A stretch of DNA of 64,000 nucleotides from a virus. The stretch's first letter is position 1. Every line of letters begins with the position of its first letter. Position numbers and translations under genes: made by a program. The notes under the pieces were generated by a model. The model made no database searches, was not told the origin of the DNA, and saw only the letters and a program-made list of their open reading frames with translations. The DNA is taken from positions 47,729 to 111,728 of IMG/VR virus record IMGVR_UViG_3300046002_008717; one strand, written 5' to 3'. This document shows positions 4,386-49,792 of this stretch, piece after piece.

Positions 4386-6899
4386 ATGGCTTTCTATCCT
4401 GAAAATAAAATACCAAAAACTGGAGCTCCTGTTTATAACGGTAACGGCGAACAATATATTATTTCTGATCCTAGATATTCCTATCATGACGGATTACAAA
4501 ATACTGACAAAATAAAGAAATCATCTAGCGATAATATATATGATACCACTGGTGGAGCTAATGCTAGAGCTAAACAAATAGGATGTTCAGGTTACCACGA
4601 AACCCTGATAGACGGTATTAAGTACTATATGCCTTGCGAAAATGTAGATTCTTATGATTTACGTATAGAGCAACTAGATAGTGCCTTAAACTTCACTTAT
4701 ATAGGTAACTATAGGGTATTATCATGGGATAAACCTTTTGAAAACGTATCATTGTATAAGGGATGGATTATTGATGCATCACATAGCAATAGTGCTGAAC
4801 CTGTATTGGACGCAGATGATATTTCAATAGAATTTAGATATAGCATAGATGGAAAAACCTGGTCGTTATGGGTTAATGTAGGAACTGCGCTAATGGGTCT
4901 TACTAATGAATTTTCATTAATAGATGAAATAGTACTAGATCCAAGTAATAAATTTTATCCTGAATTTAGATTCACATCAGTTATAAAGGATGCTAATGGA
5001 TCAAATATTTATGATCAAGGTGATGTAATAGATCCTTCCATAGTTATAGTTGCTTTTAATTTAGATTTAACCTATGCTGCTGCTCAAGAAATTCCTATCA
5101 ATAGACCATCTATCATATGCTCAAATGAGGTTTCAAACAGACCTGTAATTTTCTCCGATTGTAATTTTACATTTAATCCATATGCTGTAAACAAAGCACT
5201 AAACCTATATCAGGATTTAAGTTCTATGGTTAATAAAATATTTGGACTAGATGCAAATTATTATTCTATTCAGCCACAAGGTAGAGGGAAAGATGTAATA
5301 TTAAAGGAATATACACTTTTTGATGTTGTCGAGGAAAAATGCGTCAAGGTAATGCTAAACCAAAACCAATTCCCTGATAATAAAATAAACTTTGATCCAT
5401 TCGGAACAAATTATCAGGAGCCATTTGAAATACAGATGGATAAATTATATTTTGAATCTATTTTTGGAAAGGGATCACAACCAAGAAAGAGAGATATCAT
5501 ATATTTCCCAATGACTAATAGAATATATGAAATAAATGCTACGTATTTATTCAGAGATTTTATGAATGCACCAGTATATTTTAAAATGGAAATCAAAAAA
5601 TATACGCCAAAAAGTAATACATATTTTAAAGATCCTACACTTAAGGAGGAGCTCGATGGAATAATGATCACCACCAGAGACCTTTTTGGAGCTGATGTTA
5701 CGGATGAAGAATTGAAGATAACAAACCCTCAGCAATATGCTACTACTATAAATCAAATGTCTCAAGATCCAATTAGATCCTATGTATATAAAAATCTTGC
5801 TAATATAGGATATGATTTAAATAATAATTGGACTATAGTTTTTAATAATTATTATGACATGTCAACATCATTTAATGATGATATCGATTTTATAGCAGAA
5901 CCACATAAATATAGAACTGCAATAGGATATAAGGTATTGCCGAAATTAGCAGCATCTGAGGAATTAGCATATACTGCTTGGTTTAGTATTAAGGATCTCT
6001 ATGACAATAACCAGATGTTGAAGCGTCCATTCCCAATTATAAATATGGTACTAGAATCATATGACAGTGATTTTCTATATTTCGATACAACACCCAAAAA
6101 ACACAGACTGGAAAAATGGCTGAATTACGATAGTAATCCTGAGGGATATGTATCAATAAGTGGGGATCTAACACATACGGGAGGATATCACGTAATCGAT
6201 ATTATAGATGATTATAAATTTAAAGTCGAAAATCTTAATATCGATTTTGATAATGACCTACCAATACCATGGAAAATGCAAAAAGCACAGTCCAGAAACT
6301 TAATAAGCGGTATCATGGGAGGTACAGGCGGTACAGGAGGAACAGAAGCTAATATTGGTACCGGATTTAGAATTGACATAGTACACTCCGGTATAATAGA
6401 TGAAAACAATAATCCATTTTTGGGTGAGGGTAGTCTTATTATAAAATTGAATGATAAAATAATAAATTCACCATTACAATTTAAGCCTGTATTGGGTGAT
6501 TGGTATGGTTTGGTTGTAAATTTTTCCAATGTATATAAACAAATAGCCATGAATATATGGGGTATGTCATATGATCCAACATCAACTGGCGAACAATCAA
6601 GTAAATTAATAAAAATACATGATGATGCCAGATTAATAAAAGATCCAATTATATTTAATCACACTTCTAGTATAAATAGAGATAATGATAGTCCATTCTA
6701 TGGTGACGATACAAATGGATATAAAATATATACTAGTCCAATTTATTTAACTAATATAAGATTATTTAAGAATATGATAGATATAGATAACCAATCAGCT
6801 GTATTAAATCAGAATATAGTTAGAGATTCGCATCTTTCTCATATAATAGATAATGCTAAACCTCTTCTCTCTATTCCTAAATTTGCAAGAAATAAATAA
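4386..6899 (+). CDS. Neck/head-closure protein (T4 gp14-like domain) with long extensions
   Basis: Central FG...EPFEIQMDKLYFESIFG...PRKRDIIYFPMTNRIYEI...YFKMEIKKY resembles gp14 (P..GDLIYFP...FEI). Located upstream of terminase and sheath. Confidence 0.6.
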   Translation: MAFYPENKIPKTGAPVYNGNGEQYIISDPRYSYHDGLQNTDKIKKSSSDNIYDTTGGANARAKQIGCSGYHETLIDGIKYYMPCENVDSYDLRIEQLDSALNFTYIGNYRVLSWDKPFENVSLYKGWIIDASHSNSAEPVLDADDISIEFRYSIDGKTWSLWVNVGTALMGLTNEFSLIDEIVLDPSNKFYPEFRFTSVIKDANGSNIYDQGDVIDPSIVIVAFNLDLTYAAAQEIPINRPSIICSNEVSNRPVIFSDCNFTFNPYAVNKALNLYQDLSSMVNKIFGLDANYYSIQPQGRGKDVILKEYTLFDVVEEKCVKVMLNQNQFPDNKINFDPFGTNYQEPFEIQMDKLYFESIFGKGSQPRKRDIIYFPMTNRIYEINATYLFRDFMNAPVYFKMEIKKYTPKSNTYFKDPTLKEELDGIMITTRDLFGADVTDEELKITNPQQYATTINQMSQDPIRSYVYKNLANIGYDLNNNWTIVFNNYYDMSTSFNDDIDFIAEPHKYRTAIGYKVLPKLAASEELAYTAWFSIKDLYDNNQMLKRPFPIINMVLESYDSDFLYFDTTPKKHRLEKWLNYDSNPEGYVSISGDLTHTGGYHVIDIIDDYKFKVENLNIDFDNDLPIPWKMQKAQSRNLISGIMGGTGGTGGTEANIGTGFRIDIVHSGIIDENNNPFLGEGSLIIKLNDKIINSPLQFKPVLGDWYGLVVNFSNVYKQIAMNIWGMSYDPTSTGEQSSKLIKIHDDARLIKDPIIFNHTSSINRDNDSPFYGDDTNGYKIYTSPIYLTNIRLFKNMIDIDNQSAVLNQNIVRDSHLSHIIDNAKPLLSIPKFARNK

Positions 6900-7687: not shown

Positions 7688-9508
7688 ATGGCTAACGTTG
7701 CACTAAATAATACAATAGAAACAACATCCTGGACAACAGCAAAAATAAACGAACTGCTAAGGAAGGTTGATGAAGACGGTATAGATTTTAAGGATATTGA
7801 TAATCCATTTCATGATAACGATCCTGAATTAAAAAGAGCCAAGGTTCTATGGGAATATACAAATGAGGAAATAATCGAAATAGAGAAATGTGCTAAGGAT
7901 GTTACATACTTTGCAAAATATTGTAAGGTAATGATGGATGAGGGTTTAGATTATATACACCTTAGAGATTATCAAGAATCAGTACTTAGAGAATATCAAT
8001 CCAATAGATTTAATATATTTTTAGCACCCAGACAGGTTGGTAAATCAATAACATCATCAATAATTTTAGTTTGGTATCTTTTATTTAATCACGATAAAAA
8101 TGCAATGATTCTAGCGAATGTTGGGGATACTGCAGAAGAATTAATGGATAAGATAAAATCCATCATAAAAGGACTTCCTTTCTTTTTAAAACCTGGAATG
8201 TTGGTTAATAATGTAATGTCCATGAGATTTGATAATGGATGTAGGGTAATTGCCAAAACTACAACAAAAACATCAGGTATTGGATTTACTATACACTTTC
8301 TTTATATGGATGAGTTTGCTCACATTAACGAGAATTTTATAGAAGCTTTCTTTAGATCCACATATCCAACTGTATCATCATCCAAGGTATCCCGTATCAT
8401 CATAACATCAACTCCCAATGGGATGAATAAATTTTATGATATTTATAAAGCTGCTTTAGATGGGGAAAACTCATTTAATCCTATTAGAGTAGATTGGTGG
8501 CAGGTTCCTGGCAGGGACGAAGCATGGAAACAGGTAGAAATTGGGAATCTTGGTAGTGAAGAATTATTCAATCAGGAATATGGTAATCAATTTCTTAGTT
8601 CCTCGAATCTTTTATTAGGTTCGGAAGAACTTAAAAAAATAAAAGCGAATGAAACCGAATATACATGGCGAGAGATAAGCGATTTACATTATGCTGATGT
8701 TAATTATGAAAAATTAATATGGCATCCCAAATTTGATATTGACACGTGCAATTCTCCTGGAAATAAGTTTGTATTAACCATAGATCTAAGTGAGGGTGCT
8801 AAAGGTGATTATACTGTTATAAATATATTCAAAGTTACTCCACTACCAAAATACATAATAGATAAAATAATAGAATTTGAAGATGAATCGGATTTTTTCG
8901 GTTTACTACAGGTTGGTATATTTAGGGATAATACAATTAAACTCGAAGACATAGCAAAAATCATTTATATATTAGCAGAAAGTGTAATTAGCGTGGATAG
9001 AGTAAAGATAGCTATAGAAATGAATTATAAGGGTGAATTATTATACGATAGACTTAATAATAGGGAAGAATTTTTTGATGAAATGTTTTTGTATACAAAA
9101 CATACAGAAGCAGCAAGAATAATGAAGATCGGAATAAAATACAACGAAAAAAACAAATTGAAGTATTGCGAGTTACTAAGAAGTCTAATAAAAGAAAATC
9201 GGTTATTCATAAACGAAAAAAAATGGACAATACCCGAGTTATTTACATTTGGGATGAATAAGTCAGGTACATATTCAAGTCAAAGTGGACACGATGATGT
9301 TGCCATGACGCTAGTAAATCTACCGGCATTAATGGACGGAAGCGATTTCAACCAAATGGTCAGTGACATTTTTGACGAAATGGAGGATAGTGTATATAAG
9401 GATATGATTATTGCAAAATTGGAAGGGGAATTACCATCAGATGAAGACATGAGAGATTTTTCTACCAAACAAGGACAGAGCTATAAGGATTTCAGTAAAC
9501 TATTATAA
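7688..9508 (+). CDS. Terminase large subunit (T4 gp17-like)
   Basis: LRDYQ, Walker A APRQVGKS, Walker B YMDEFAH, TSTPNG; nuclease motifs IDLSEG.KGDY and HDDVAM. Confidence 0.95.
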   Translation: MANVALNNTIETTSWTTAKINELLRKVDEDGIDFKDIDNPFHDNDPELKRAKVLWEYTNEEIIEIEKCAKDVTYFAKYCKVMMDEGLDYIHLRDYQESVLREYQSNRFNIFLAPRQVGKSITSSIILVWYLLFNHDKNAMILANVGDTAEELMDKIKSIIKGLPFFLKPGMLVNNVMSMRFDNGCRVIAKTTTKTSGIGFTIHFLYMDEFAHINENFIEAFFRSTYPTVSSSKVSRIIITSTPNGMNKFYDIYKAALDGENSFNPIRVDWWQVPGRDEAWKQVEIGNLGSEELFNQEYGNQFLSSSNLLLGSEELKKIKANETEYTWREISDLHYADVNYEKLIWHPKFDIDTCNSPGNKFVLTIDLSEGAKGDYTVINIFKVTPLPKYIIDKIIEFEDESDFFGLLQVGIFRDNTIKLEDIAKIIYILAESVISVDRVKIAIEMNYKGELLYDRLNNREEFFDEMFLYTKHTEAARIMKIGIKYNEKNKLKYCELLRSLIKENRLFINEKKWTIPELFTFGMNKSGTYSSQSGHDDVAMTLVNLPALMDGSDFNQMVSDIFDEMEDSVYKDMIIAKLEGELPSDEDMRDFSTKQGQSYKDFSKLL

Positions 9509-12905: not shown

Positions 12906-13460
12906 ATGGCAGGATTATCACACTATAACAATGGAATATCGGCAATCAATAAACAGGAGCCTGTTTATTTGAATCAATTCGAAGTAAGTATAATACCTCC
13001 TGGAGTTATAGCGGGAGGTAAAATATTACTGGAGCATGTCACAAAAGTTAGTGGACTTTCTCTAGATAAAAATCCAGGAATAATACAACAGAAATTTAAA
13101 TTCGCTAAAAGGAATTATGCTGGTGGTAAACCTGAGAATACCTTTATGGATTTGAGTTTAAGTTTTAATGTCAATTTGGACGAATCTAATTCAATGTATG
13201 TTTTCAAAACATTAAGACAATGGTCGGATTTAATATACAATCCGCTAACTGGAGCAATGGGATTAAAAAATGATTACGTCGGAACTATAGTCATATCGAT
13301 ATTTAATAAGCAGGGTGATGTATATAGAAGAATTACATGTAAAGATGCATTTCCAATTAAACCTATAACTCCGATGAATCTAAATTATACATCTACAGAT
13401 CTATATAAAATAGATGATATGGTTTGGGCAGTTGATGTTTGGGAGGATCTATTCATATAA
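12906..13460 (+). CDS. Tail tube protein, paralog 1 (gp19-like)
   Basis: Directly after the sheath; EPVYLNQFEV, RNYAGG, RQWSDLIYNPLTG, DAFP motifs of gp19-type tubes. Confidence 0.85.
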   Translation: MAGLSHYNNGISAINKQEPVYLNQFEVSIIPPGVIAGGKILLEHVTKVSGLSLDKNPGIIQQKFKFAKRNYAGGKPENTFMDLSLSFNVNLDESNSMYVFKTLRQWSDLIYNPLTGAMGLKNDYVGTIVISIFNKQGDVYRRITCKDAFPIKPITPMNLNYTSTDLYKIDDMVWAVDVWEDLFI

Positions 13461-13475
13461 AATAATAATAAATAA

Positions 13476-14051
13476 ATGTCAGGATTATCACATTTTAACA
13501 ATTCAAAAGCGGGAATACTTAATAGAGAACCAGTTTTTCTTAACCAATTCTCTCTTATTATAAATCCTCCAGCAGGAATACTGGATGCAGGAAAACAATT
13601 TAATGGAGAAAGTATACTTGCACAGCAAGTAAAATCCATAACAGGATTGGCTGTAGATATCACACCAGCACAAACAGTGGAGCAACATTATAAATTTGCT
13701 ACCAGAAGATATGCAGGCGGTGAGCCATCTACTAGTGATATGGCGTTATCTATGGAATTTGAAGTCAATTTGAATGATAAGAATTCTATGGAAGTATATA
13801 AAATATTAAGACAGTGGTCAGATTTAATCTACAACCCTCTAACTGGAGCTATGGGATTGAAAACAGATTACGTTGGATCTATGCTTATTACTGTATTTAA
13901 CAAAAGAGGTGATATATTTAGAAAAATTAGAATACCATCATGTTTCTTAAGTGAAGCTATAAACCCAATGGATCTTGATTATGAAACTCCAGCTATTTAT
14001 ACAATAACTGCTTCATGGATATGCGATACGTGGGAAGATTTATTCATATAA
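13476..14051 (+). CDS. Tail tube protein, paralog 2 (gp19-like)
   Basis: Clear paralog of 12906..13460, sharing RQWSDLIYNPLTGAMGLK.DYVG and C-terminal WEDLFI. Confidence 0.85.
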   Translation: MSGLSHFNNSKAGILNREPVFLNQFSLIINPPAGILDAGKQFNGESILAQQVKSITGLAVDITPAQTVEQHYKFATRRYAGGEPSTSDMALSMEFEVNLNDKNSMEVYKILRQWSDLIYNPLTGAMGLKTDYVGSMLITVFNKRGDIFRKIRIPSCFLSEAINPMDLDYETPAIYTITASWICDTWEDLFI

Positions 14052-25364: not shown

Positions 25365-25392
25365 GAAATCTTTTAGTATTTTTAACTAAGAT
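25365..25392 (+). promoter_or_regulatory. Putative middle-type promoter GAAAT-N17-TAAGAT upstream of the gp55-like sigma
   Basis: GAAAT cttttagtatttttaac TAAGAT directly after a terminator and 17 nt before ATG 25410. Confidence 0.5.
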
Positions 25393-25409
25393 TGATAAAG
25401 ATAAATACT

Positions 25410-25769
25410 ATGGCAAAAGAATATGTAAAAAATAGCGAATTATTAATTGCTATAATAGAATCAAAAGAAAAAGGAGTATTAACTTCCGATACTATAGAAA
25501 TGTTTGATCTTATAATAAATGGGATTTCTAAAAAAATGTCATATAAGGATCCTAACGACAAAGAAGATTGTATGGCATTTGCTATGGAGGATCTTTGTAA
25601 ATATTGGAATAGATTCAATCCTGAAAAATCTAATAATCCATTTTCATATTATACTCAAATAGCTAAAAATGGTTTTGCTAAGGGGTGGAAAAAAATTCAT
25701 CCTCCAAAAAATCCTAAAACTATCCCATTCAGTTATATAACGGGTGATGATAATTCATATAATATCTAA
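25410..25769 (+). CDS. Late-transcription sigma factor (T4 gp55-like)
   Basis: YVKNSELL...FNPEKSNNPFSYYTQIAKN signature of gp55. ATG 25410 preferred over the track's TTG start at 25392. Confidence 0.85.
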   Translation: MAKEYVKNSELLIAIIESKEKGVLTSDTIEMFDLIINGISKKMSYKDPNDKEDCMAFAMEDLCKYWNRFNPEKSNNPFSYYTQIAKNGFAKGWKKIHPPKNPKTIPFSYITGDDNSYNI

Positions 25770-25777
25770 ATTTTAGT

Positions 25778-26263
25778 ATGAGCAATATAAAAAAAATAAA
25801 GCCTAACGGATTATACAAAAACGGATTATTCGAACCAAGAAATCCCGATAAGTATGTAGGTGATATACATAATATAATATATAGATCCTCCTGGGAATAT
25901 AGATTTTGTAAATATTGCGATAATACCGAATCTATAATTAAGTGGAGTTCTGAACCTATAGGAATAGACTATTATAATCCGCTTGATAAAAAAGAGCATG
26001 TGTATCATGTTGATTTCTATATGAAGGTAGTTAAGGAAGATAATACTGAGCAAGATTGGATAATAGAAATTAAACCAGAAAACCAAACAAAAAAACCCGT
26101 ATATGTCGGATCTATAACAGAACCAAAGTTAAAATCATATAATAGAAATATGGGAATTTGGATAACGAATCAATCTAAATTTAAGGCAGCAAAAATATGG
26201 GCCGAAAAAAGGGATTTTCGTTTTGGAGTAATAGATGAAAACTTTCTATTTAATAGCATATAA
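25778..26263 (+). CDS. Head completion nuclease (T4 gp4-like, TnsA-type)
   Basis: NPDKYVGD..IIYRSSWE, KWSSEP, YHVDF, IEIKP, NQSKFKAA. Confidence 0.9.
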   Translation: MSNIKKIKPNGLYKNGLFEPRNPDKYVGDIHNIIYRSSWEYRFCKYCDNTESIIKWSSEPIGIDYYNPLDKKEHVYHVDFYMKVVKEDNTEQDWIIEIKPENQTKKPVYVGSITEPKLKSYNRNMGIWITNQSKFKAAKIWAEKRDFRFGVIDENFLFNSI

Positions 26264-26285
26264 AGAGATCTACTTGCACTAGACC

Positions 26286-26293
26286 GATATATA
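26286..26293 (+). promoter_or_regulatory. Putative late promoter GATATATA (overlapping TATAAATA)
   Basis: Upstream of the first portal ATG at 26315. Confidence 0.7.
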
Positions 26294-26314
26294 AATAAAT
26301 AAATAAATAAATAA

Positions 26315-27958
26315 ATGGCAGGTTTCATAGATAATAATACTCCGCAGGCATCACCGGTCGTACAAAAGATAAGGGATTCTGTTAAAAAACTTAGCAAATT
26401 TGGAATGAAATACGATGACATGGTTATTCGTAATTCCCAAGCTGTTGGTGTAACCGAAGCAGCGTTCCTAAATAAATCCAAAACAGATGCTGAAGACGAG
26501 AGTATGATTTATACTCTTGCGAAACAGGATATAACATCTAGACAATTTATATCTTATTTTGATAAAGATTATAAAGCAAAGAGAGATTATCTTCGGACAT
26601 TTTCATTGAATCCTGAAATCGAATGGGTATTGGATACTATTTGTGATGAGTCCATATCTTATGATCCTTCTAATTTTTTTGCATATCCTTCATTTATTGA
26701 CTTAAGTAATCTTAATGAGAAAATCAAAGATGATCTATATGAAGTATATAAACAAGTATATGACGTATGGGGATTTAGTGATGATATAACAGCATGGCAA
26801 TATTTTAGACAATTCGTTGTTGAAGGATTTCTTGCGTTTGAGATTGTATACGATAATGATGGAATCAATATCATAGGATTTAAAGAACTTGATGCAATAA
26901 CATTAATTCCTAGTGTAGAAAAACAATTAGACGGATCATATTTAAGTGTATGGATACAATATCCTCAAGATATCAAAAGAAAAAGGATATTATACGAACC
27001 CCAAATTATTTATATGTCCTATGCTAAGGGCAATTCTATATCTAGAGTAAGTTACATGGAAAGATTAATCAGACCATATAATATACTTAGAATAATAGAA
27101 TATACCAGAGTTATTTGGGCAGTTATGAATGCATCTTTTAAATTGAAGATGACTATTCCAATCGGTACAAAATCACAGCAAAAAGGGATGCAAACTCTGG
27201 GTGAGTTAATGAGCATATACAAGGAAGACATACAGCTAAATGACGAAAGCGGAGAGCTTACAGTAGACGGAAGACCAAAAATGCAATTTTATAAAAATTA
27301 TCTTATGCCTTCTGGTGTAAATGGAACACCTACAGTGGAGCCAATAAATACTGAAGGACCTAATTTAAATGATATGCAACCTTTATCATATTTCTTTGAT
27401 AAGTATATACTAGAATCTAAAGTACCCCCGTCCAGGTTTCATAATCCAGATGGTGGTAGTACATCTTCATATTCTAATGGTGCAGAAGGATTAGATAAGG
27501 AAGAAATAAGATTTGCTAAATTCATTTCGAGATTAAGATCTTCATTTCAGGATATTCTTTTAAAACCACTTTGGATACAAATGGTTAAAAAACACGAAGC
27601 CCTTGCTAACGATTTTGCATTCAAAAGTCAGCTAGGATTGGATTATTGGTCTGATAATCCGTTCAAACTAAATCAGGAAATAGCTAAAATGACCTCTAAT
27701 AAGGATGGTATAATTGCTATGGGCGGATTAATGGGTGATGATGAAACCCCATTTTTTTCTAATGGTTTCCTAATAGAATCATATTTGGGATTATCTAAAA
27801 ATGATATCGATGCTAATAAGGAAGCAATAGCTAGAAAGAAAAAAAATAAAAAAACAGCGGGAGCACCTGCATCTGAAGAAGCATCACCAGAAGGTGAAGC
27901 TCCAGAAACAACTCCAGAAACGGAAGGTGCACCTCCAGCTGAACCAGTAACACTTTAA
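26315..27958 (+). CDS. Portal protein, paralog 1 (T4 gp20-like)
   Basis: PEIEWVLDTICDE, FRQFVVEG, SYMERLIRPYNILRIIE, KVPPSRF and EEIRFAKFISRLR match gp20 motifs. Confidence 0.9.
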   Translation: MAGFIDNNTPQASPVVQKIRDSVKKLSKFGMKYDDMVIRNSQAVGVTEAAFLNKSKTDAEDESMIYTLAKQDITSRQFISYFDKDYKAKRDYLRTFSLNPEIEWVLDTICDESISYDPSNFFAYPSFIDLSNLNEKIKDDLYEVYKQVYDVWGFSDDITAWQYFRQFVVEGFLAFEIVYDNDGINIIGFKELDAITLIPSVEKQLDGSYLSVWIQYPQDIKRKRILYEPQIIYMSYAKGNSISRVSYMERLIRPYNILRIIEYTRVIWAVMNASFKLKMTIPIGTKSQQKGMQTLGELMSIYKEDIQLNDESGELTVDGRPKMQFYKNYLMPSGVNGTPTVEPINTEGPNLNDMQPLSYFFDKYILESKVPPSRFHNPDGGSTSSYSNGAEGLDKEEIRFAKFISRLRSSFQDILLKPLWIQMVKKHEALANDFAFKSQLGLDYWSDNPFKLNQEIAKMTSNKDGIIAMGGLMGDDETPFFSNGFLIESYLGLSKNDIDANKEAIARKKKNKKTAGAPASEEASPEGEAPETTPETEGAPPAEPVTL

Positions 27959-27962
27959 TAAT

Positions 27963-29585
27963 ATGGCAGGATTTTTAGATTTCTTAAAACCAAATCAATC
28001 AGCACTAGGTAATATAATAAAAAACTTAGGAGCTGTTGCTAAATTTGGTATGCACTATGATGATATGGTTGTGAAAAATTCACAAGCAATCGGTAAAACA
28101 GAAGCTATGTTTGCTAATCAGGATTCTAGCGGACTTACTTCAAATGATGCTTTTTATTGGACTGCATCATATCAAGATACTAAAGTTAAAAAATATATTG
28201 CTTATTTCGATAGAGAGTACATAGAGAAAAGAAACTATCTTAGAAAATTTTCAATAAACGGAGAAATCGAATTTATCTTGGACGTATTAACAGACGAGGC
28301 TATAGTTTATGACGATAGAAATTATTTTGCATATCCATCTTTTGCAAATTTAGATGTAAAAGACAATATAAAAGAAAAATTGACTTCGCATTATAATAGA
28401 TTATATTCGGTTTTCCAATTTCAAAATACTATACTTGCTTGGCAATATTTTAAACAATTTTTGGTTGATGGATTTCTTGCTTTTGAAATAATATATGATA
28501 ATAAGGGTAAGGAAATAATAGGATTTAAAGAATTGGATCCTTCCTCATTGCAACCAGTCGTAGAAAAGATAAAGGAAAATGAATATAAACAGTTTTGGAT
28601 CCAATATCCAGGTAATCCTCAAATGACCAGGAAAATAACAAATGAACAGATTATTTACATATCATATGCTAAAGGAAATACTATATCAAGAGTTAGTTAT
28701 GTTGAGAGATTAGTTAGGTCGTATAATATATTAAGGATAATGGAGAATTCACGAATTATTTGGAATGTTATGAATTCCTGTTATCGTATGAAATTTATAA
28801 TCCCAATTGGTACGCAATCACAGCAAAAAGCAATGCAAAATCTGGGGCAATTAATGGCTAATTATAAGGAGGATATAACTATAAATGATGCATCTGGTGA
28901 ATTAACTGTTAATGGTAGACCTAAGGTTCAGTTTTATAAAAATTATTTATTTCCTGAAAATAATGGGGTTTCCCCTGAGATATCGTCATTAACCCCATCA
29001 GGCCCAGATTTTAATGTCATGGAAAATGTACTATATTTCTTTAATAAATTAAAGATGGATTCTAAAATACCATATGCTAGATTTGCTTCCAAAAATGGTA
29101 CACCCGCAAATTATCAGATAGCAATAGATCAATTAGAAAGAGACGAAATAAGGTTTGGTAAATTTCTTAGAAGAATTAGATCAATATTCCAAGAATTATT
29201 AATTAAGCCTCTTTATATACAGATGTGTTTAGATCACCCAGAATTAGCAAAGGATAGAGCATTTAAAGCAAATTTGGGCCTTAAGTTTTGTAGCGATAGC
29301 GAATTCGAGGAAATGGTCGAGATGACAAATTTTACAAAACGTAGTGAATTCATTAAAGGACTCGGAGAACTTAAAAATACCGGAACGGTCGCTGAGGGCG
29401 AAGAACCTGATTCATACTTTGATAATGAATTTTTAATACAAAGATTTTTGGGTATGAACTTGGATCAGTTGAAAAGTAACGAAAGATATAAAAAGGAAGA
29501 AGCTGCTGCAGGAAAGAAAAAAGAAGAACCAGAGGAGGAACCAGAAAAGGGAACAGGAAAGGAAACTCCAAAGGTAACATTATAA
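27963..29585 (+). CDS. Portal protein, paralog 2 (T4 gp20-like)
   Basis: GEIEFILDVLTDEA, FKQFLVDG, SYVERLVRSYNILRIME, KIPYARF, RDEIRFGKFLRRIR. Intact and full length. Confidence 0.9.
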   Translation: MAGFLDFLKPNQSALGNIIKNLGAVAKFGMHYDDMVVKNSQAIGKTEAMFANQDSSGLTSNDAFYWTASYQDTKVKKYIAYFDREYIEKRNYLRKFSINGEIEFILDVLTDEAIVYDDRNYFAYPSFANLDVKDNIKEKLTSHYNRLYSVFQFQNTILAWQYFKQFLVDGFLAFEIIYDNKGKEIIGFKELDPSSLQPVVEKIKENEYKQFWIQYPGNPQMTRKITNEQIIYISYAKGNTISRVSYVERLVRSYNILRIMENSRIIWNVMNSCYRMKFIIPIGTQSQQKAMQNLGQLMANYKEDITINDASGELTVNGRPKVQFYKNYLFPENNGVSPEISSLTPSGPDFNVMENVLYFFNKLKMDSKIPYARFASKNGTPANYQIAIDQLERDEIRFGKFLRRIRSIFQELLIKPLYIQMCLDHPELAKDRAFKANLGLKFCSDSEFEEMVEMTNFTKRSEFIKGLGELKNTGTVAEGEEPDSYFDNEFLIQRFLGMNLDQLKSNERYKKEEAAAGKKKEEPEEEPEKGTGKETPKVTL

Positions 29586-29625
29586 AAATAAAAGGGAAAT
29601 ATTTAACATATTTCCCTTTTATTTT
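29585..29625 (+). terminator. Intrinsic terminator
   Basis: 18-bp arms AAAATAAAAGGGAAATAT / ATATTTCCCTTTTATTTT with loop TTAAC. Confidence 0.8.
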
Positions 29626-41246: not shown

Positions 41247-43217
41247 ATGTATAAAATGTCAATAAATAAAATGTTAAACGAGAATTTGGTTTTTATTCTA
41301 GATAGACAAACTTCTATCCTGGAATCAACTAAGATTGATTCTGAGCATTATGTACTGGAAGGTACGGCTGCTGTTTTCGGAAAGGAAAACAACAATGCAA
41401 GAATTTACGAAGAAGCAGAATATCTACCTCATCTAAATTATCTTAATGAGAAAATAGCTCAAAGAAGATTAGTTGGTGAATTAGATCACCCTGAGAAATT
41501 TGACGTTTCGCTTAAAAACATTTCACATATAATAGAAGGTCTTAATTACGATAAGGATACAAGAGAATTAAAAATAAAAGTTAGACTTTTAGATACCCCG
41601 ATGGGTTTAATAGCTAAAAATCTTGTTGATGCTGGTGTACCTTTATCTATATCATCTAGAGCTGCTGGATCAGTAGGTAATGATAAAAAGGTAATGATCA
41701 AAAAAATATTTACATATGATCTAGTTGCTGATCCTGGTTTTCAAGATGCCCAACTAGGTAGAGTATATGAAAGCGTTGGATATTCATCGGAAGATTTCTC
41801 TAATATTAAGGATAAAGATGTAACTAATAACTTATTTTGTTTAAATGAGCAATTGGGTCTAAAAAATGAATCTGGTATGAAGATATATAAAGTTGAAAAT
41901 AACGAGGAATTTAATAAACTCGTATCGACATTGGACAAAAATAAACAAACACTCATGGAGAATAATGAATTCGTTACTACTGAAGATCTTAATGGATATT
42001 CAATCTTTCTAAAAAAAGAAATGGATGCTATGAATACCAAGATTTCTGAACTTAAAGAGTCAAAGGAATCATTAACTGAATCAGCTATAGAAGATAGAAA
42101 TACAGAATTAGAAGAAAGAGTTATTAAATTAGAAAAATATTCTGAATATTTAGCTGAAAATCTGGACAATGCTATTAAATACGGAGAATATCTTGCAAAA
42201 AATTTAGATGAAAGTATTAACTATAGTAAATATCTTGCTGAAAATTTAGATACTAATATTACATATACTAAATCTGTTGATGAAAATGTAACTAAAGGAA
42301 TTTCTTATTCTGAATATGTTGCAGAAAGTGTTGATAGAAGTATAGAATATTCCAAATATCTTGCTGAGAAAGTTGATCAGAATATACAATATTCTGAATA
42401 CATAGGTGAAAATTTAGAAAAAGGAATAGCTTATAGCGAATATCTAGGTGAGAATTTAGAAAAAGGAATAGCTTATACCGAGTATCTTGCAGAAAATTTA
42501 AATAATGGAATTAAAAAGACTGAAGCATTAGATGAGACAGTTAATAAAAATATACAATATGCTAATTATTTAGCAGAAAATGTTAACAAAGGTTTGGATT
42601 ATTCCGAATATATTTCAGAGAGATTAACAAAATCTATTTCATATACTGAATATATAAGTGAAAGTATAAATACTAACACTATGAAACCAAGTGAAACATT
42701 AAGAGAAGGCGTAGAACTTTCATCTGAAGCAGGATTAAACGAATCTGGTTTTGGTGGAGATTATACAGATCTTACAAGTAAAATAGATAATTTGATAGAA
42801 TCAGTTAAAACACAAAAAACTGAATCAGATATAAATGAAGCTTCTAATAAAATGAAGCAAGTAGCCAATACACAAGAGGCTAAAGAAGAAGAAGTTCTTA
42901 ACGAAAAGGAAAACACTAATAAAACTGGACTTAAGTTTATAGACGAAATTCCTGAAGATTATGCTAAAGTATGGGAATCACTTACAGATGGTCACAAGCA
43001 ATCAATTATTGCTCAAAGCCACACCTGGAATTTAGATACACCATACCAGATCAGAAACTTCTGGTCAACACGTCAACTTGGAACAGCTCCAATAGGGGTT
43101 CAAAAATTAGACGAGAATGAAAACACGGAAATATCCAATACACCAACATTAGGTTATAGCAACGATTATATGGCTGCTATCGCTTCAGCATTGGATAAAA
43201 AATTCCAAATAAGATAA
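41247..43217 (+). CDS. Prohead protease (gp21-like) fused to a scaffold/core domain
   Basis: NNNARIY, GELDHP, ISHII, LDTPMG, ISSRAAG, TYDLVADPGF. Followed by a coiled-coil region with 14-aa repeats. Confidence 0.92.
   Translation: MYKMSINKMLNENLVFILDRQTSILESTKIDSEHYVLEGTAAVFGKENNNARIYEEAEYLPHLNYLNEKIAQRRLVGELDHPEKFDVSLKNISHIIEGLNYDKDTRELKIKVRLLDTPMGLIAKNLVDAGVPLSISSRAAGSVGNDKKVMIKKIFTYDLVADPGFQDAQLGRVYESVGYSSEDFSNIKDKDVTNNLFCLNEQLGLKNESGMKIYKVENNEEFNKLVSTLDKNKQTLMENNEFVTTEDLNGYSIFLKKEMDAMNTKISELKESKESLTESAIEDRNTELEERVIKLEKYSEYLAENLDNAIKYGEYLAKNLDESINYSKYLAENLDTNITYTKSVDENVTKGISYSEYVAESVDRSIEYSKYLAEKVDQNIQYSEYIGENLEKGIAYSEYLGENLEKGIAYTEYLAENLNNGIKKTEALDETVNKNIQYANYLAENVNKGLDYSEYISERLTKSISYTEYISESINTNTMKPSETLREGVELSSEAGLNESGFGGDYTDLTSKIDNLIESVKTQKTESDINEASNKMKQVANTQEAKEEEVLNEKENTNKTGLKFIDEIPEDYAKVWESLTDGHKQSIIAQSHTWNLDTPYQIRNFWSTRQLGTAPIGVQKLDENENTEISNTPTLGYSNDYMAAIASALDKKFQIR
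42138..42675 (+). repeat. ~13 coding tandem repeats of 14 aa (42 bp), consensus YSEYLAENLDKGIx
   Basis: YSEYLAENLDNAIK, YGEYLAKNLDESIN, YSKYLAENLDTNIT ... YTEYISESINT. Confidence 0.85.
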
Positions 43218-43233
43218 AAAAATTAATTAAATC

Positions 43234-44907
43234 ATGAAATTGATTAACGAACAAGAAATCTACGATACCTGGTCACCGCTTATTGAAAGCAAAGCTGGTA
43301 TTACAGACGAAAATAAAAAAGTATGGTTGACTAAATATTGTCATTACCATTCATTAAACGAATCTGCCGGAGCTTATAATTCATTAGGAGTTGTAAACGG
43401 TATGGGTAACGTTGCTGCACCGGTATATCCTACTGGTAATGCTAATACTGCATTTTACAATACAGGAAATCAAGGTTCAGGAGATAAATTCCCTTCATTA
43501 TTGCCTTTAGCTATACAAGTAGCTGCTAAGACAATCGGGTTTGATATCGTACCTGTTATACCTATGTCAGGACCAACAGGTATCTTATCTTACTTAGATT
43601 ATGTATACGCTGGTGGTAAAATTGGAGCTGCTTCTGCATCTACTGCTGCTGATCAGTTAGCTTCTGCACCTTCTATGATTAAATTCCCAGTTGAGGTAGC
43701 AGGAATTACAGGTGGTACTGGCGCTAGCGCTACTACTTTTACTGTTGGTACTACTTACACTGTTAATACTACTTTAGAATTAACATTCATCGGATTATCA
43801 AGAATAGATGGATTCCCTATATTTAAAGTAACTGCAATAGCACAAGGTAGCAATATCTCTACTTATTTCAACGGTACTTCTTATCAGGTTGGAACTAGCG
43901 GATTCTATACAGTGGGAACAGCAGGTTCTGCACAATTAGTTAAAGCTTTGCAAGATCATATTCAAGGATATGTTGGAGCTGGTTCTACTAATAGTGATGC
44001 TTGGCAAGGTCCTTATGTAGATGGTACTAAAACGTACAACCCTATGTTAAGAGGAACTGGTGAGTCTACTTACTATAACTCAATGGGTCTTTCAACTTTC
44101 ACTAAATTCGTTGAAGCTGAAACTTTCCAAGTAGCTGCTGCAGTTACAACTGAGCAAATTCAGGATCTTAACAAACAATTCGGTATCGACGTTATCTCAA
44201 TGATCGAAAACGCATTGGTTAATGAAGTTTCTCAGGCTATTAACAAACACATACTTTCAAGAGCATTTGCTCTAGGATGGTCAAATCACTTACAATTTAG
44301 CTTAGTTGAAAGTCAAAACCTTAACCTTAACTTAGTGTTAAGTGGTGCTGCTGGTACAACTTTAGCGTATGTGAAAAAAGACGACACTGCATCAACTATG
44401 GTAATCCCTGCTGGTCCAGTATCAGGAGGATATGAAAACTTATCAACTCTACAAAGAAGATTGTTTTCAAGAATACTTGCAGGTGCTAATGTAGTTGCAA
44501 ATAGAGGTAGAAGAGGACCTGCTAACTTCATCGTTACTAACGCTGCTTTAGCTAGTGCACTTCAAGATATTTCTCAGTTCACTTTTGCTCCATTCTCTAA
44601 TACTTTAACTCAAAATAATGGTACTTTATACCCTGTAGGTTCACTTGCTGGTATGACCGTTTATGTAGATCAGAACATGAACTACAACGATACCAGAATC
44701 TTGATCGGTAGAAAAGGTGGTGACGATGAGCCAGGTATTAAATTCATGCCTTACATGATGGCAGAAAGCATTCAGACAATCTCTGAAGGTACTATGTCAC
44801 CTAAAATCGCGGTAAAATCTAGATATGCTTTAGTTGAAGCTGGATTCTTACCAGAAACTATGTACTTAACATTATTTGTACAAGTACCAGTTGGTGGTTT
44901 GGCATAA
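43234..44907 (+). CDS. Major capsid protein (T4 gp23-like)
   Basis: DIVPVIPMSGPTG, TTEQIQDL, LVNEVSQAINKHI, RRGPANFIV, VGSLAG..VYVD, FMPY, PKIAVKSRYAL. SLNES likely maturation cleavage site. Confidence 0.95.
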   Translation: MKLINEQEIYDTWSPLIESKAGITDENKKVWLTKYCHYHSLNESAGAYNSLGVVNGMGNVAAPVYPTGNANTAFYNTGNQGSGDKFPSLLPLAIQVAAKTIGFDIVPVIPMSGPTGILSYLDYVYAGGKIGAASASTAADQLASAPSMIKFPVEVAGITGGTGASATTFTVGTTYTVNTTLELTFIGLSRIDGFPIFKVTAIAQGSNISTYFNGTSYQVGTSGFYTVGTAGSAQLVKALQDHIQGYVGAGSTNSDAWQGPYVDGTKTYNPMLRGTGESTYYNSMGLSTFTKFVEAETFQVAAAVTTEQIQDLNKQFGIDVISMIENALVNEVSQAINKHILSRAFALGWSNHLQFSLVESQNLNLNLVLSGAAGTTLAYVKKDDTASTMVIPAGPVSGGYENLSTLQRRLFSRILAGANVVANRGRRGPANFIVTNAALASALQDISQFTFAPFSNTLTQNNGTLYPVGSLAGMTVYVDQNMNYNDTRILIGRKGGDDEPGIKFMPYMMAESIQTISEGTMSPKIAVKSRYALVEAGFLPETMYLTLFVQVPVGGLA

Positions 44908-47317: not shown

Positions 47318-49792
47318 ATGAATAAGAATCCACAAATAAACAATCCAGTAGCTAAAAATTTATTAGATAGCTACAATTACGGTAAACTTTTTGAAAACGA
47401 ATTAGTCGATGCACTATTAAATAAAATAACTGCTAATGCTTTGGAGGTTTTCAAAATACTTATATTTGATATAGCACCAAAAAGGGATAGGAATCCAGAA
47501 GCTACCAGAGCCAAATTATCACTTATGGCTAATGCTAAAAATGTAAAAGAATTATCTTCTATATTAACTAATGATACTATGGATGTTGATGTGGTAAATT
47601 CTAAATATTCGGAAGCAAAAAGATTATATCAGCTTTCACTTGAGAAGTTTGCAGAAGCTTTAGAAAGAGGAGTAGAGATAAGTAAAGAAAAAGAAGAAGG
47701 CATACTCGCATACGCTAAGAATGCGGCACAAAAATTACAAAACTCATTTGACAATAGGGCTAAAGAATATCAAGCTGAATTGGATAGTAAAACACAGAAC
47801 AGCTCAGAAGAATCTTTCTATTTCAGTGACGATATCCTTAATGAAAATGGATTATTTACCGGATATAAAGGTAGAGTCGATTCATTGAGAAAAATGCTAG
47901 TAAATTTAATAAGCTCAGCTGAAGGTAAGGATGGTAAAAATGGGTATGGTAGAGATTGGAAGAGAACTTTTCTTGATCTTGATGAGAAAAGAAAAGCATT
48001 AGATAACGGAAGAGGCGGATTTGGTGAAAAGGACAAAAGATCACTAGATGAACTTGAAAAACAAGTAGATAAATTTAGACTTGATTTTTTAACTGCATCC
48101 AATAAATCTATAGATAATGATTTATTGAAAATTCAAAATGATGAGGAGATCAAAGGATCATATTCGGATGTTACTGATTTAACAACAGAGGCACTCGAAC
48201 TTAAAACTAGGGCTGATGCACAAAGAAATATTGCAATAGGCGAGATAGGTGATGACCATAAGACGAAGGAAGGTGATTTTATTAAAACCTTATTTCCGCT
48301 TAAAAGAGGTGATACCGATGCTGATGATAAAATAAAAGAAAGCGGATTAATAGCAGCTATACAAACAGCTATTGCTAATGGTATTAAATCAGCAGGTACT
48401 TTGTTGAGATCTAAAGGAGGTCCTAATGGTAAATATGGTCCTGCTACTACATCTATAATAGCCACTATACAAAAATCTGTAGGTAATAAGAATACTAATG
48501 GTAGTTTAGATCAAGCACTATTGGATGATATTATATCATCTGACTGGGTTTCTGAAAAAGATAAAGCAGCCATACAAAAATCTTTGGATATAATAAGAGG
48601 TAAAATGCACGAAAGTAATACTGGTGTTATGAAATTTGGTGATTTTCTTAATATAACTATAAACGAATCTAAGATAATAATAAACAATTCAGATTTCGAA
48701 AAGGAACTAGCAAACCAATATAAAGATATAACAGGTAATGATATGACACGTGCAGCTTCTAATAAAATAGGGGACAATGAGGGTGACGATATTACAGGAT
48801 CTGCAGGGAAAGAAGTAGATAAACTTGCTTCTTCTCTTAGAAAAAATTATAATTTAAAAGTTGAGGGTAGTGACTTTATCAGAAATGATGGATCATTAAA
48901 ACCTGCATATGATACTAAATTCATAAAAGCATGGAATTCAGCTTTAGCTGCTACCGCAGAAAACCCAAAAGATTATTCATATTTCTTTTTTAATAACGGT
49001 TTATATAATATCAATCTTGCTAGCACATCATTAAAGTTTCCTTGTAACTGGGAAAGATTTGAAAAACTGGATGAAAGTGATGATCCATTAGTATTTTTTA
49101 ATAACTATCTTAAAGGGTGGGCAACTTTTGGTATGATCAGACCAGCTGAAAGATATAACGGAATAAATTCCATATTGGGAATGAAGGATAAATTAAAATT
49201 GCCTGGAGTATACAATAAGATGGATTTAACTATAGTTAATAAGGTAACACCGTTTATAAAATTTGATGATTTAAAAGGTGGTATTAAAGAAGCATTCAGA
49301 ATACTTACCGATGATGATGATTGGGGAGGAAATGAATTTGTAGCATTTAATAATTTATTGGTTTCTGTTGCTAATGCTATATCATTTGATGGTGAAAAAT
49401 TTATAAGCTGTTTAAAATGGCTAAATGACGATGAGCTTAAATACAAAACAGAAAAAATAGCTAGTGATTCCATAATTACTAGTACATCCTCCGATACTGG
49501 TAAGGTCGTACTCGGTTTTGCTGGTAGCAAAATAATAAATAATACAGTAGCTTCGTACGAGAATATAGAAATAAAAAGAGGTTTAAAATCTCATAAGGAT
49601 GTTAGCAGTTTGGATCCATTTCTTAATTACGGAGGTAATAGGGGACAAAGAAAAGCATTATGTAAAAATTGTGAATATATTGGGTCCGAGATATATCCAG
49701 GAATCAAAGTACATTTACAAAGAATGAACATGGTGAAATTTTCAGATTTCCCTAATGACAGTAAAGGGTTTAAGTGTAAGGAGATTAAATAA
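47318..49792 (+). CDS. Large protein with a peptidoglycan-binding-like segment, possibly virion-internal
   Basis: PLKRGD...IQ.AI...NGKYGPATTSIIATIQ...NG resembles PG_binding_1; internal MKFGDFLNITINES motif. Confidence 0.55.
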   Translation: MNKNPQINNPVAKNLLDSYNYGKLFENELVDALLNKITANALEVFKILIFDIAPKRDRNPEATRAKLSLMANAKNVKELSSILTNDTMDVDVVNSKYSEAKRLYQLSLEKFAEALERGVEISKEKEEGILAYAKNAAQKLQNSFDNRAKEYQAELDSKTQNSSEESFYFSDDILNENGLFTGYKGRVDSLRKMLVNLISSAEGKDGKNGYGRDWKRTFLDLDEKRKALDNGRGGFGEKDKRSLDELEKQVDKFRLDFLTASNKSIDNDLLKIQNDEEIKGSYSDVTDLTTEALELKTRADAQRNIAIGEIGDDHKTKEGDFIKTLFPLKRGDTDADDKIKESGLIAAIQTAIANGIKSAGTLLRSKGGPNGKYGPATTSIIATIQKSVGNKNTNGSLDQALLDDIISSDWVSEKDKAAIQKSLDIIRGKMHESNTGVMKFGDFLNITINESKIIINNSDFEKELANQYKDITGNDMTRAASNKIGDNEGDDITGSAGKEVDKLASSLRKNYNLKVEGSDFIRNDGSLKPAYDTKFIKAWNSALAATAENPKDYSYFFFNNGLYNINLASTSLKFPCNWERFEKLDESDDPLVFFNNYLKGWATFGMIRPAERYNGINSILGMKDKLKLPGVYNKMDLTIVNKVTPFIKFDDLKGGIKEAFRILTDDDDWGGNEFVAFNNLLVSVANAISFDGEKFISCLKWLNDDELKYKTEKIASDSIITSTSSDTGKVVLGFAGSKIINNTVASYENIEIKRGLKSHKDVSSLDPFLNYGGNRGQRKALCKNCEYIGSEIYPGIKVHLQRMNMVKFSDFPNDSKGFKCKEIK

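Follow-up and report, generated by a model that had tools for sequence, protein, structure and literature searches.

The Portal Gene Pair

We analysed a tandem pair of portal genes, here called portal A and portal B, in a stretch of viral DNA of 64,000 nucleotides (nt). This stretch, referred to below as the window, covers positions 47,729 to 111,728 of IMGVR_UViG_3300046002_008717, a 111.7-kb IMG/VR virus record with a CheckV completeness estimate of 39%. Portal A lies at window positions 26315..27958 on the + strand and encodes a protein of 547 amino acids (aa). It is followed on the same strand by portal B (27963..29585, 540 aa). The spacer between them consists of 4 nt (27959..27962, + strand; TAA TAA T ATG) and carries no promoter motif. 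Both products were matched end to end by the T4 portal family PF07230 (Portal_T4, cut-off 22.9 bits). Portal A scored 183 bits over profile positions 6-431 of 433 (E 9e-54), and portal B scored 228 bits over positions 4-433 (E 2e-67). The portal group phrog_213 was matched by both proteins as well. T4 gp20 from the PDB was matched over residues 94-460 of portal B (E 2e-17) and over residues 245-427 of portal A (E 9e-11). Portal A and portal B are intact, full-length portal genes of the T4 gp20 type. The coordinates and the profile matches agree with a preliminary description of this DNA, in which two full-length gp20-like open reading frames of these lengths and spacing had been reported.

The same description regarded the two genes as paralogous yet diverged, and this was confirmed by direct comparison. 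An alignment of 524 aa gave 48% identity between portal A and portal B (E 1e-174). Both translations start with MAGF and end with VTL, and the motif KFGM.YDDMV..NSQA.G, which had been quoted there, is found in both alike. A Shine-Dalgarno-like sequence was not seen upstream of portal A or portal B; the upstream regions are A-rich.

Conservation and Phylogeny

Two scans of IMG/VR yielded 140 loci, from which 55 distinct pairs (107 loci) were obtained after duplicates had been removed. At every locus with 62-84% identity, portal A was followed by portal B and both genes were intact, except where the contig ended. The gap between the genes measured 1-23 nt in the 55 distinct pairs, with modes at 4 and 9. 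No lineage among the scanned loci had lost either gene. Exactly two PF07230 genes each were counted in two genomes (434.5 and 373.5 kb) that are complete and bear direct terminal repeats. Two full-length portal genes were also present in each of the genomes G000, G001, G002 and G007, in contrast to the single gene of canonical tailed-phage portals. Records outside the clade, 80-462 kb in length, had one portal gene each. The clade is abundant in metagenomes, and the copies of its portal genes in public databases are all labelled as hypothetical proteins. Our literature searches returned no report of duplicated or heteromeric portals; the sole hit that combined a heterododecamer with a portal was a preprint about the poxvirus core.

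A maximum-likelihood tree was built from 66 representatives. Portal A and portal B formed two separate clades (support 100 each), their union was supported at 96, and the sub-clades of one were mirrored in the other. The stems of the two clades were of equal length (0.58 for A and 0.57 for B), and the single-copy lineages fell outside. The tree has the form of an ancient duplication giving two clades, as the preliminary description had envisaged. The simplest history would be one ancient tandem duplication in the ancestor of an uncultured jumbo phage clade, followed by co-divergence of the copies.

GenBank contained no phage close to portal A. The best match was the 462-kb huge phage LR756500 (43% identity), and the Lak megaphages came next (about 35%). 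Among the 1,096 GenBank phage records that matched portal A, a second match was present only in two records of one 735-kb phage, and it was a fragment of 101 aa. In LR756501.1 (15166-15351, locus L151) of this phage, a full portal is accompanied by the 101-aa frame, which matches the C-terminal end of the portal profile. The fragment is possibly a relic of another portal duplication.

Selection and Gene Conversion

The selective constraint on each copy was estimated by the Nei-Gojobori method in the 55 pairs. The ratio of nonsynonymous to synonymous divergence (omega, dN/dS) was 0.02-0.05 for portal A and for portal B. The median ratio of dN in A to dN in B was 0.96, with a correlation of 0.96. 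Both copies are therefore under strong and equal purifying selection, and the claim that both are maintained holds in 55 of 55 pairs. Relaxed selection and pseudogene formation were ruled out by these omega values. Gene conversion was examined by comparison of A-B identity within genomes (50.3%) and between genomes (49.8%). The agreement of the two values extended to each 40-column segment, which led us to reject conversion over the gene body.

These results bear on the most trivial explanation of the pair, in which it would be an assembly chimera, a recent redundant duplicate or a decaying pseudogene. A chimera had been named beforehand as a possible source of error. Because over 100 loci from many metagenomes, and two complete genomes as well, share the arrangement, an assembly chimera is ruled out. 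A recent or decaying copy is at odds with 48% identity, deep mirrored clades and such low omega values. The probability of this explanation as a whole is negligible.

Location of the Differences between the Two Portals

The differences were mapped onto the domains of T4 gp20, with domain bounds taken from PMC4493910. The gp20 register was obtained with HMMER, which was used instead of mafft --add as the latter had misplaced the clip and channel register of T4 gp20. Among the columns of stem helix 1, 67% were conserved and identical in A and B; in the clip the share was 48%, and in the wing 33-42%. We found 32 fixed differences between A and B. They occupied 37% of the columns of the channel loop and helix alpha7, 19% of the tunnel loop and 1-6% of the wing; further ones were located in stem helix 1 and in the inner clip loop. 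In T4 gp20, DNA is contacted at three sites, namely the inner clip, channel and tunnel loops. The tunnel loops are in contact with adjacent subunits as well, and the clip strands form an inter-subunit sheet (PMC4493910). The invariant MAGF N-terminus of both proteins matches the whisker of T4 gp20, which is anchored to the capsid (PMC7136217). From the alignment, the N-terminal whisker, the wing and the clip are predicted to be common to portal A and portal B.

The fixed sites were then compared with 12 single-copy outgroups. The ancestral residue was kept at 8 sites by A and at 6 sites by B. In the channel region the ratio of ancestral states was 7:2 in favour of A, and in the clip and N-terminus it was 4:0 in favour of B; this split was noticed post hoc and concerns small numbers.

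The C-terminal tail is fast-evolving, acidic and proline-rich. Portal B always ends in x-[V/F]-T-[L/I]. Portal A usually does so, and the motif was lost in two of its sublineages. In the single-copy relatives, the C-terminus is formed by different hydrophobic motifs (DLGF, DIDF). Over the last 5-12 residues (window positions 27920-27955 in A and 29547-29582 in B), the likeness of A to B was 0.61 within genomes vs 0.43 between genomes. This P-x-V-T-L type peptide co-varies between the two copies despite synonymous differences in many pairs. Its co-variation could reflect a docking partner shared inside the head, or short conversion tracts.

The mild asymmetry of the C-terminal motif, always present in B and twice lost by A, would fit a reading in which one paralog is not a virion portal at all. 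Such a protein might be an assembly chaperone or template, a packaging regulator, or a decoy for host sensors that recognise portals. A non-structural copy is expected to relax somewhere. Conservation of the channel, clip, wing and whisker extends to both copies, their omega and dN values do not differ over the full length, and the divergence is symmetric in stem length and in the number of ancestral states. We therefore see only a slight chance that one of the two has left the portal.

Transcription Signals and Operon

A candidate late promoter, CGATATATAAATA, is located at 26285..26297 on the + strand, 18 nt before the ATG of portal A. It contains the T4 late-promoter octamer TATAAATA. The CGATATATAAATA motif is kept in the sublineage of the window, and AATCGAAATTAA occupies the same position in most other relatives. 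In most relatives (e.g., L003, L056 and L091), AATCGAAATTAA is a conserved non-coding motif about 35-45 nt before portal A. The sublineage of the window has TCGATATATAAATA in its place. This upstream AATCGAAATTAA/TCGATATATAAATA motif is possibly a clade-specific late promoter element. In the window, which is 30% GC, TATAAATA was not enriched (39 found vs 30.5 expected), CGATATATA was not enriched either (3 found vs 1.6 expected), and the enrichment of TCGAAATTAA was not significant. Because the motifs are not enriched, the promoter call is based on position, on the neighbouring gene for a gp55-like sigma factor, and on conservation of the upstream motif. The octamer TATAAATA was absent from the last 60 nt of portal A and from the A-B gap in all 55 pairs.

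Downstream, a hairpin resembling an intrinsic terminator (29585..29625, + strand; 18 pairs and a T-run) ends the operon. Similar hairpins follow portal B in several relatives, and no plausible + strand terminator was found between portal A and portal B in the window. Of the one shared promoter and one terminator proposed in the preliminary description, the terminator was thus recovered and the promoter stays a candidate. The presumed co-transcription of A and B is supported by the spacing of 1-23 nt in the 55 pairs and by the single downstream terminator. In 22 of these pairs, the two genes are in the same frame, with 1-3 TAA codons and a few sense codons between them (e.g., L011:4300-7605 and L017:4390-7611). 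Read-through of the stop codons in such pairs would yield a hypothetical A-B fusion.

Structure Prediction

The portal A monomer was modelled with AlphaFold2. The predicted local distance difference test (pLDDT) score was 63 and the predicted template modelling (pTM) score was 0.54; the wing and crown were confident, and the clip was of low confidence. In a Foldseek search with this model, the top 13 matches were all T4 gp20 (probability 1.0, template modelling score 0.37-0.51). Portal B was folded only within a low-confidence A-B fusion model. This fusion was the natural in-frame A-TAA-B read-through at locus L011, and it was folded with a paired and unpaired alignment.

Extra internal structures are frequent in the heads of jumbo phages. 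With both copies retained and presumably co-expressed, each virion might contain two rings, the second stacked coaxially on the portal or placed at a second special vertex. A stacked inner ring would need neither a clip facing the terminase and neck nor an N-terminal whisker, yet both parts are conserved equally in A and B. No such arrangement was present in the solved tailed-phage structures among the Foldseek matches. Two rings per virion are, in our assessment, very unlikely.

Genomic Neighbourhood

The pair lies in a late virion-morphogenesis set, all of it in the window, that comprises genes for the sigma factor, a gp4-like protein, terminase, sheath, tube, protease and capsid protein. 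The gp55-like late sigma factor (25392..25769, + strand; phrog_234, E 1.7e-14) is encoded two genes upstream of portal A. The gene adjoining portal A upstream (25778..26263, + strand) codes for a gp4-like head closure/completion protein with a TnsA-like nuclease fold (phrog_218, E 2e-43). Its N-terminal domain is a TnsA-like endonuclease domain (PF08722, E 9e-17). The large terminase (7688..9508, + strand; phrog_5989, E 1e-53) would be the docking partner of the portal clip. The major capsid protein (43234..44907, + strand; phrog_138 major head protein, E 8.5e-35) would be the partner of the wing and N-terminal whisker. Its gene follows directly after that of a prohead protease homolog (41247-43217, 656 aa). 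The protease matched a gp21-like PHROG over residues 22-381 only, and its C-terminal extension is unannotated. The sheath protein encoded in the window has 1097 aa. ARAGORN found 0 tRNA genes in the 64 kb, and the GC content is about 30%.

A weak gp14-like neck domain was found at residues 260-413 of an 837-aa protein (4386-6899), whose gene occupies the T4 gp13-gp14 position. A gp13-like adaptor was not detected by sequence in the window. A query with T4 gp13 gave no match in three genomes, a result made uninformative by the evolutionary distance. The neck organisation of the clade may differ from that of T4.

In the complete genome G002, we found only about 10 paralog families, and the terminase and capsid protein had no BLAST-detectable paralog. 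The sole other tandem-duplicated core virion gene of this genome is that of the tail tube. In the window, tail-tube paralog 1 (12906..13460, + strand; 184 aa) matched phrog_32623 and tail-tube PHROGs, and tail-tube paralog 2 (13476..14051, + strand; 191 aa) gave a tail-tube match. They are arranged in tandem and are 51% identical. Two tube genes were present in 4 of 4 two-portal genomes tested, and one in 5 of 5 single-portal relatives that hold the tube region. The contigs of the sister single-copy lineage are without the tube region, and either of the two duplications may have come first.

The single copies of terminase, capsid protein and protease speak against another explanation, namely that A and B form separate homo-dodecamers used in different particles or at different stages. 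One of them could, for example, nucleate proheads under some conditions, or there could be two particle types, with changes at the interfaces preventing mixing. Every portal feature is kept in both copies, and the fixed differences in the stem helices and tunnel loop could be changes in interface specificity. Among duplicated homomers of bacteria, about one in two has remained homomeric (PMC7480870). The gap of 1-23 nt within one operon in 55 of 55 pairs gives no regulatory separation of the two genes, and neither copy was lost in any lineage. The clip strands, which form the inter-subunit sheet in T4, hardly differ between A and B, and the two kinds of subunit could therefore scarcely be kept from assembling with each other. 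We regard separate rings as unlikely.

A Possible Portal Ring of Two Subunit Types

Each protein has the look of a complete, functional portal, and both would have to fit one and the same capsid protein, terminase and neck. From the ancient duplication, its retention throughout the clade, the equal constraint, the layout of the operon and the sites at which the fixed differences lie, we infer that the two are expressed together and may share a ring, which is the most economical of the explanations. In this mechanism, a single late transcript would cover both genes and serve as the mRNA for both proteins. A and B would then co-assemble into one dodecameric ring at a single portal vertex, most simply with six A and six B subunits in alternation. 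The parts facing single-copy partners would have been kept, i.e., the N-terminal whisker and wing towards the capsid, the clip helix and strands towards the terminase, neck and neighbouring subunit, and the C-terminal hydrophobic motif. Fixed divergence would fall mainly in the inner clip loop, channel loop, tunnel loop and stem helices. As these loops are divergent, a mixed ring would present the DNA with alternating loops and with six-fold instead of twelve-fold symmetry.

Several observations weigh against a mixed ring. Two distinct homomeric channels would account for the fixed channel-loop differences just as well. The C-terminal co-variation was always concordant and was not significant after phylogenetic correction, as there were few independent pairs (p at least 0.125). 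The co-occurrence of portal and tube duplications is suggestive only, because it represents a single evolutionary branch (n = 1). The AlphaFold2 model of the L011 read-through fusion (pTM 0.33, pLDDT 51.6) showed no confident A-B docking and is uninformative. A fused A-B protein of at least 946 aa was not found in a set of 5.8 billion proteins, which is a weak argument. In addition, about half of the duplicated homomers of E. coli remain separate homomers (PMC7480870). On the other side, co-regulated paralogs of homomers generally stay heteromeric unless their regulation diverges (PMC6711710). Weighing this tendency against the split seen in E. coli, we consider the chances of a single ring with both subunit types, most simply alternating, to be about even.

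The stronger proposal is an obligate, alternating A6B6 portal; no other tailed virus is known to have a heteromeric one. It would have evolved together with the duplicated tube, and the entire DNA conduit would thereby have acquired a new symmetry or valve design on a single branch. We put this forward tentatively, as a possibility that is somewhat improbable. In T4, the step from 12-fold to 6-fold symmetry is located between gp13 and gp14 (PMC12929629). With a six-fold portal, if true, this change of symmetry would instead occur within the portal.

Few features of tailed phages and herpesviruses vary as little as the portal, a homo-dodecamer made from a single gene. Present ideas about symmetry mismatch, coupling of the packaging motor and genome gating are built on it. 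A portal of two subunit types, if true, would make it possible to ask directly which portal functions depend on twelve identical subunits and for which a six-fold alternation is tolerable or even advantageous. It would, moreover, show in a virus how a homomeric ring can become heteromeric after gene duplication. The question is directly testable, because expression of the proteins in E. coli needs no phage culture.

Comparison with Known Systems

A close known counterpart is T4 gp20 (PF07230; PDB 3JA7, 6UZC, 9MKB and 9LU6/9LU7). Portal A and portal B resemble it in the end-to-end profile match, in the PDB sequence match and in the late morphogenesis setting. The N-terminal whisker and the clip/stem/wing/crown layout, here predicted, are shared as well. 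T4 differs in having one gene and a homo-dodecamer, whereas two full-length paralogs are fixed in the whole clade described here, with about 15% identity to gp20.

Duplicated subunits of a ring or lattice are also found within T4, where gp23 and gp24 form the capsid hexons and vertices and gp19 and gp3 form the tube and the tube terminator. In these cases the second copy came to occupy a place of its own within the virion. To our knowledge, there is no portal case comparable to gp23/gp24 or gp19/gp3. The T4 pairs occupy different rings or positions, and their divergence is much greater than that of the pairs analysed here. For gp19 and gp3 the identity is about 22% (PMC12929629), and the tube pair of the window is 51% identical and in tandem.

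A likeness also exists with hetero-oligomeric rings that arose from homomeric ones through duplication, e.g., eukaryotic CCT, Mcm2-7, the proteasome rings, the fungal V-ATPase ring and haemoglobin (PMC6711710, PMC11789046). These share with the portal pair the duplication of a homomer, purifying selection on both copies, complementary fixed differences and co-expression, the last of which is presumed here. Their co-assembly has been demonstrated, whereas that of the portal pair is a proposal, and none of them is a viral portal.

The nearest sequenced relatives are LR756500 and the Lak megaphages. They belong to the same portal family, and the close ones have MAGF-type N-termini. In contrast to the two-portal clade, each of their genomes has one portal gene and one tail-tube gene.

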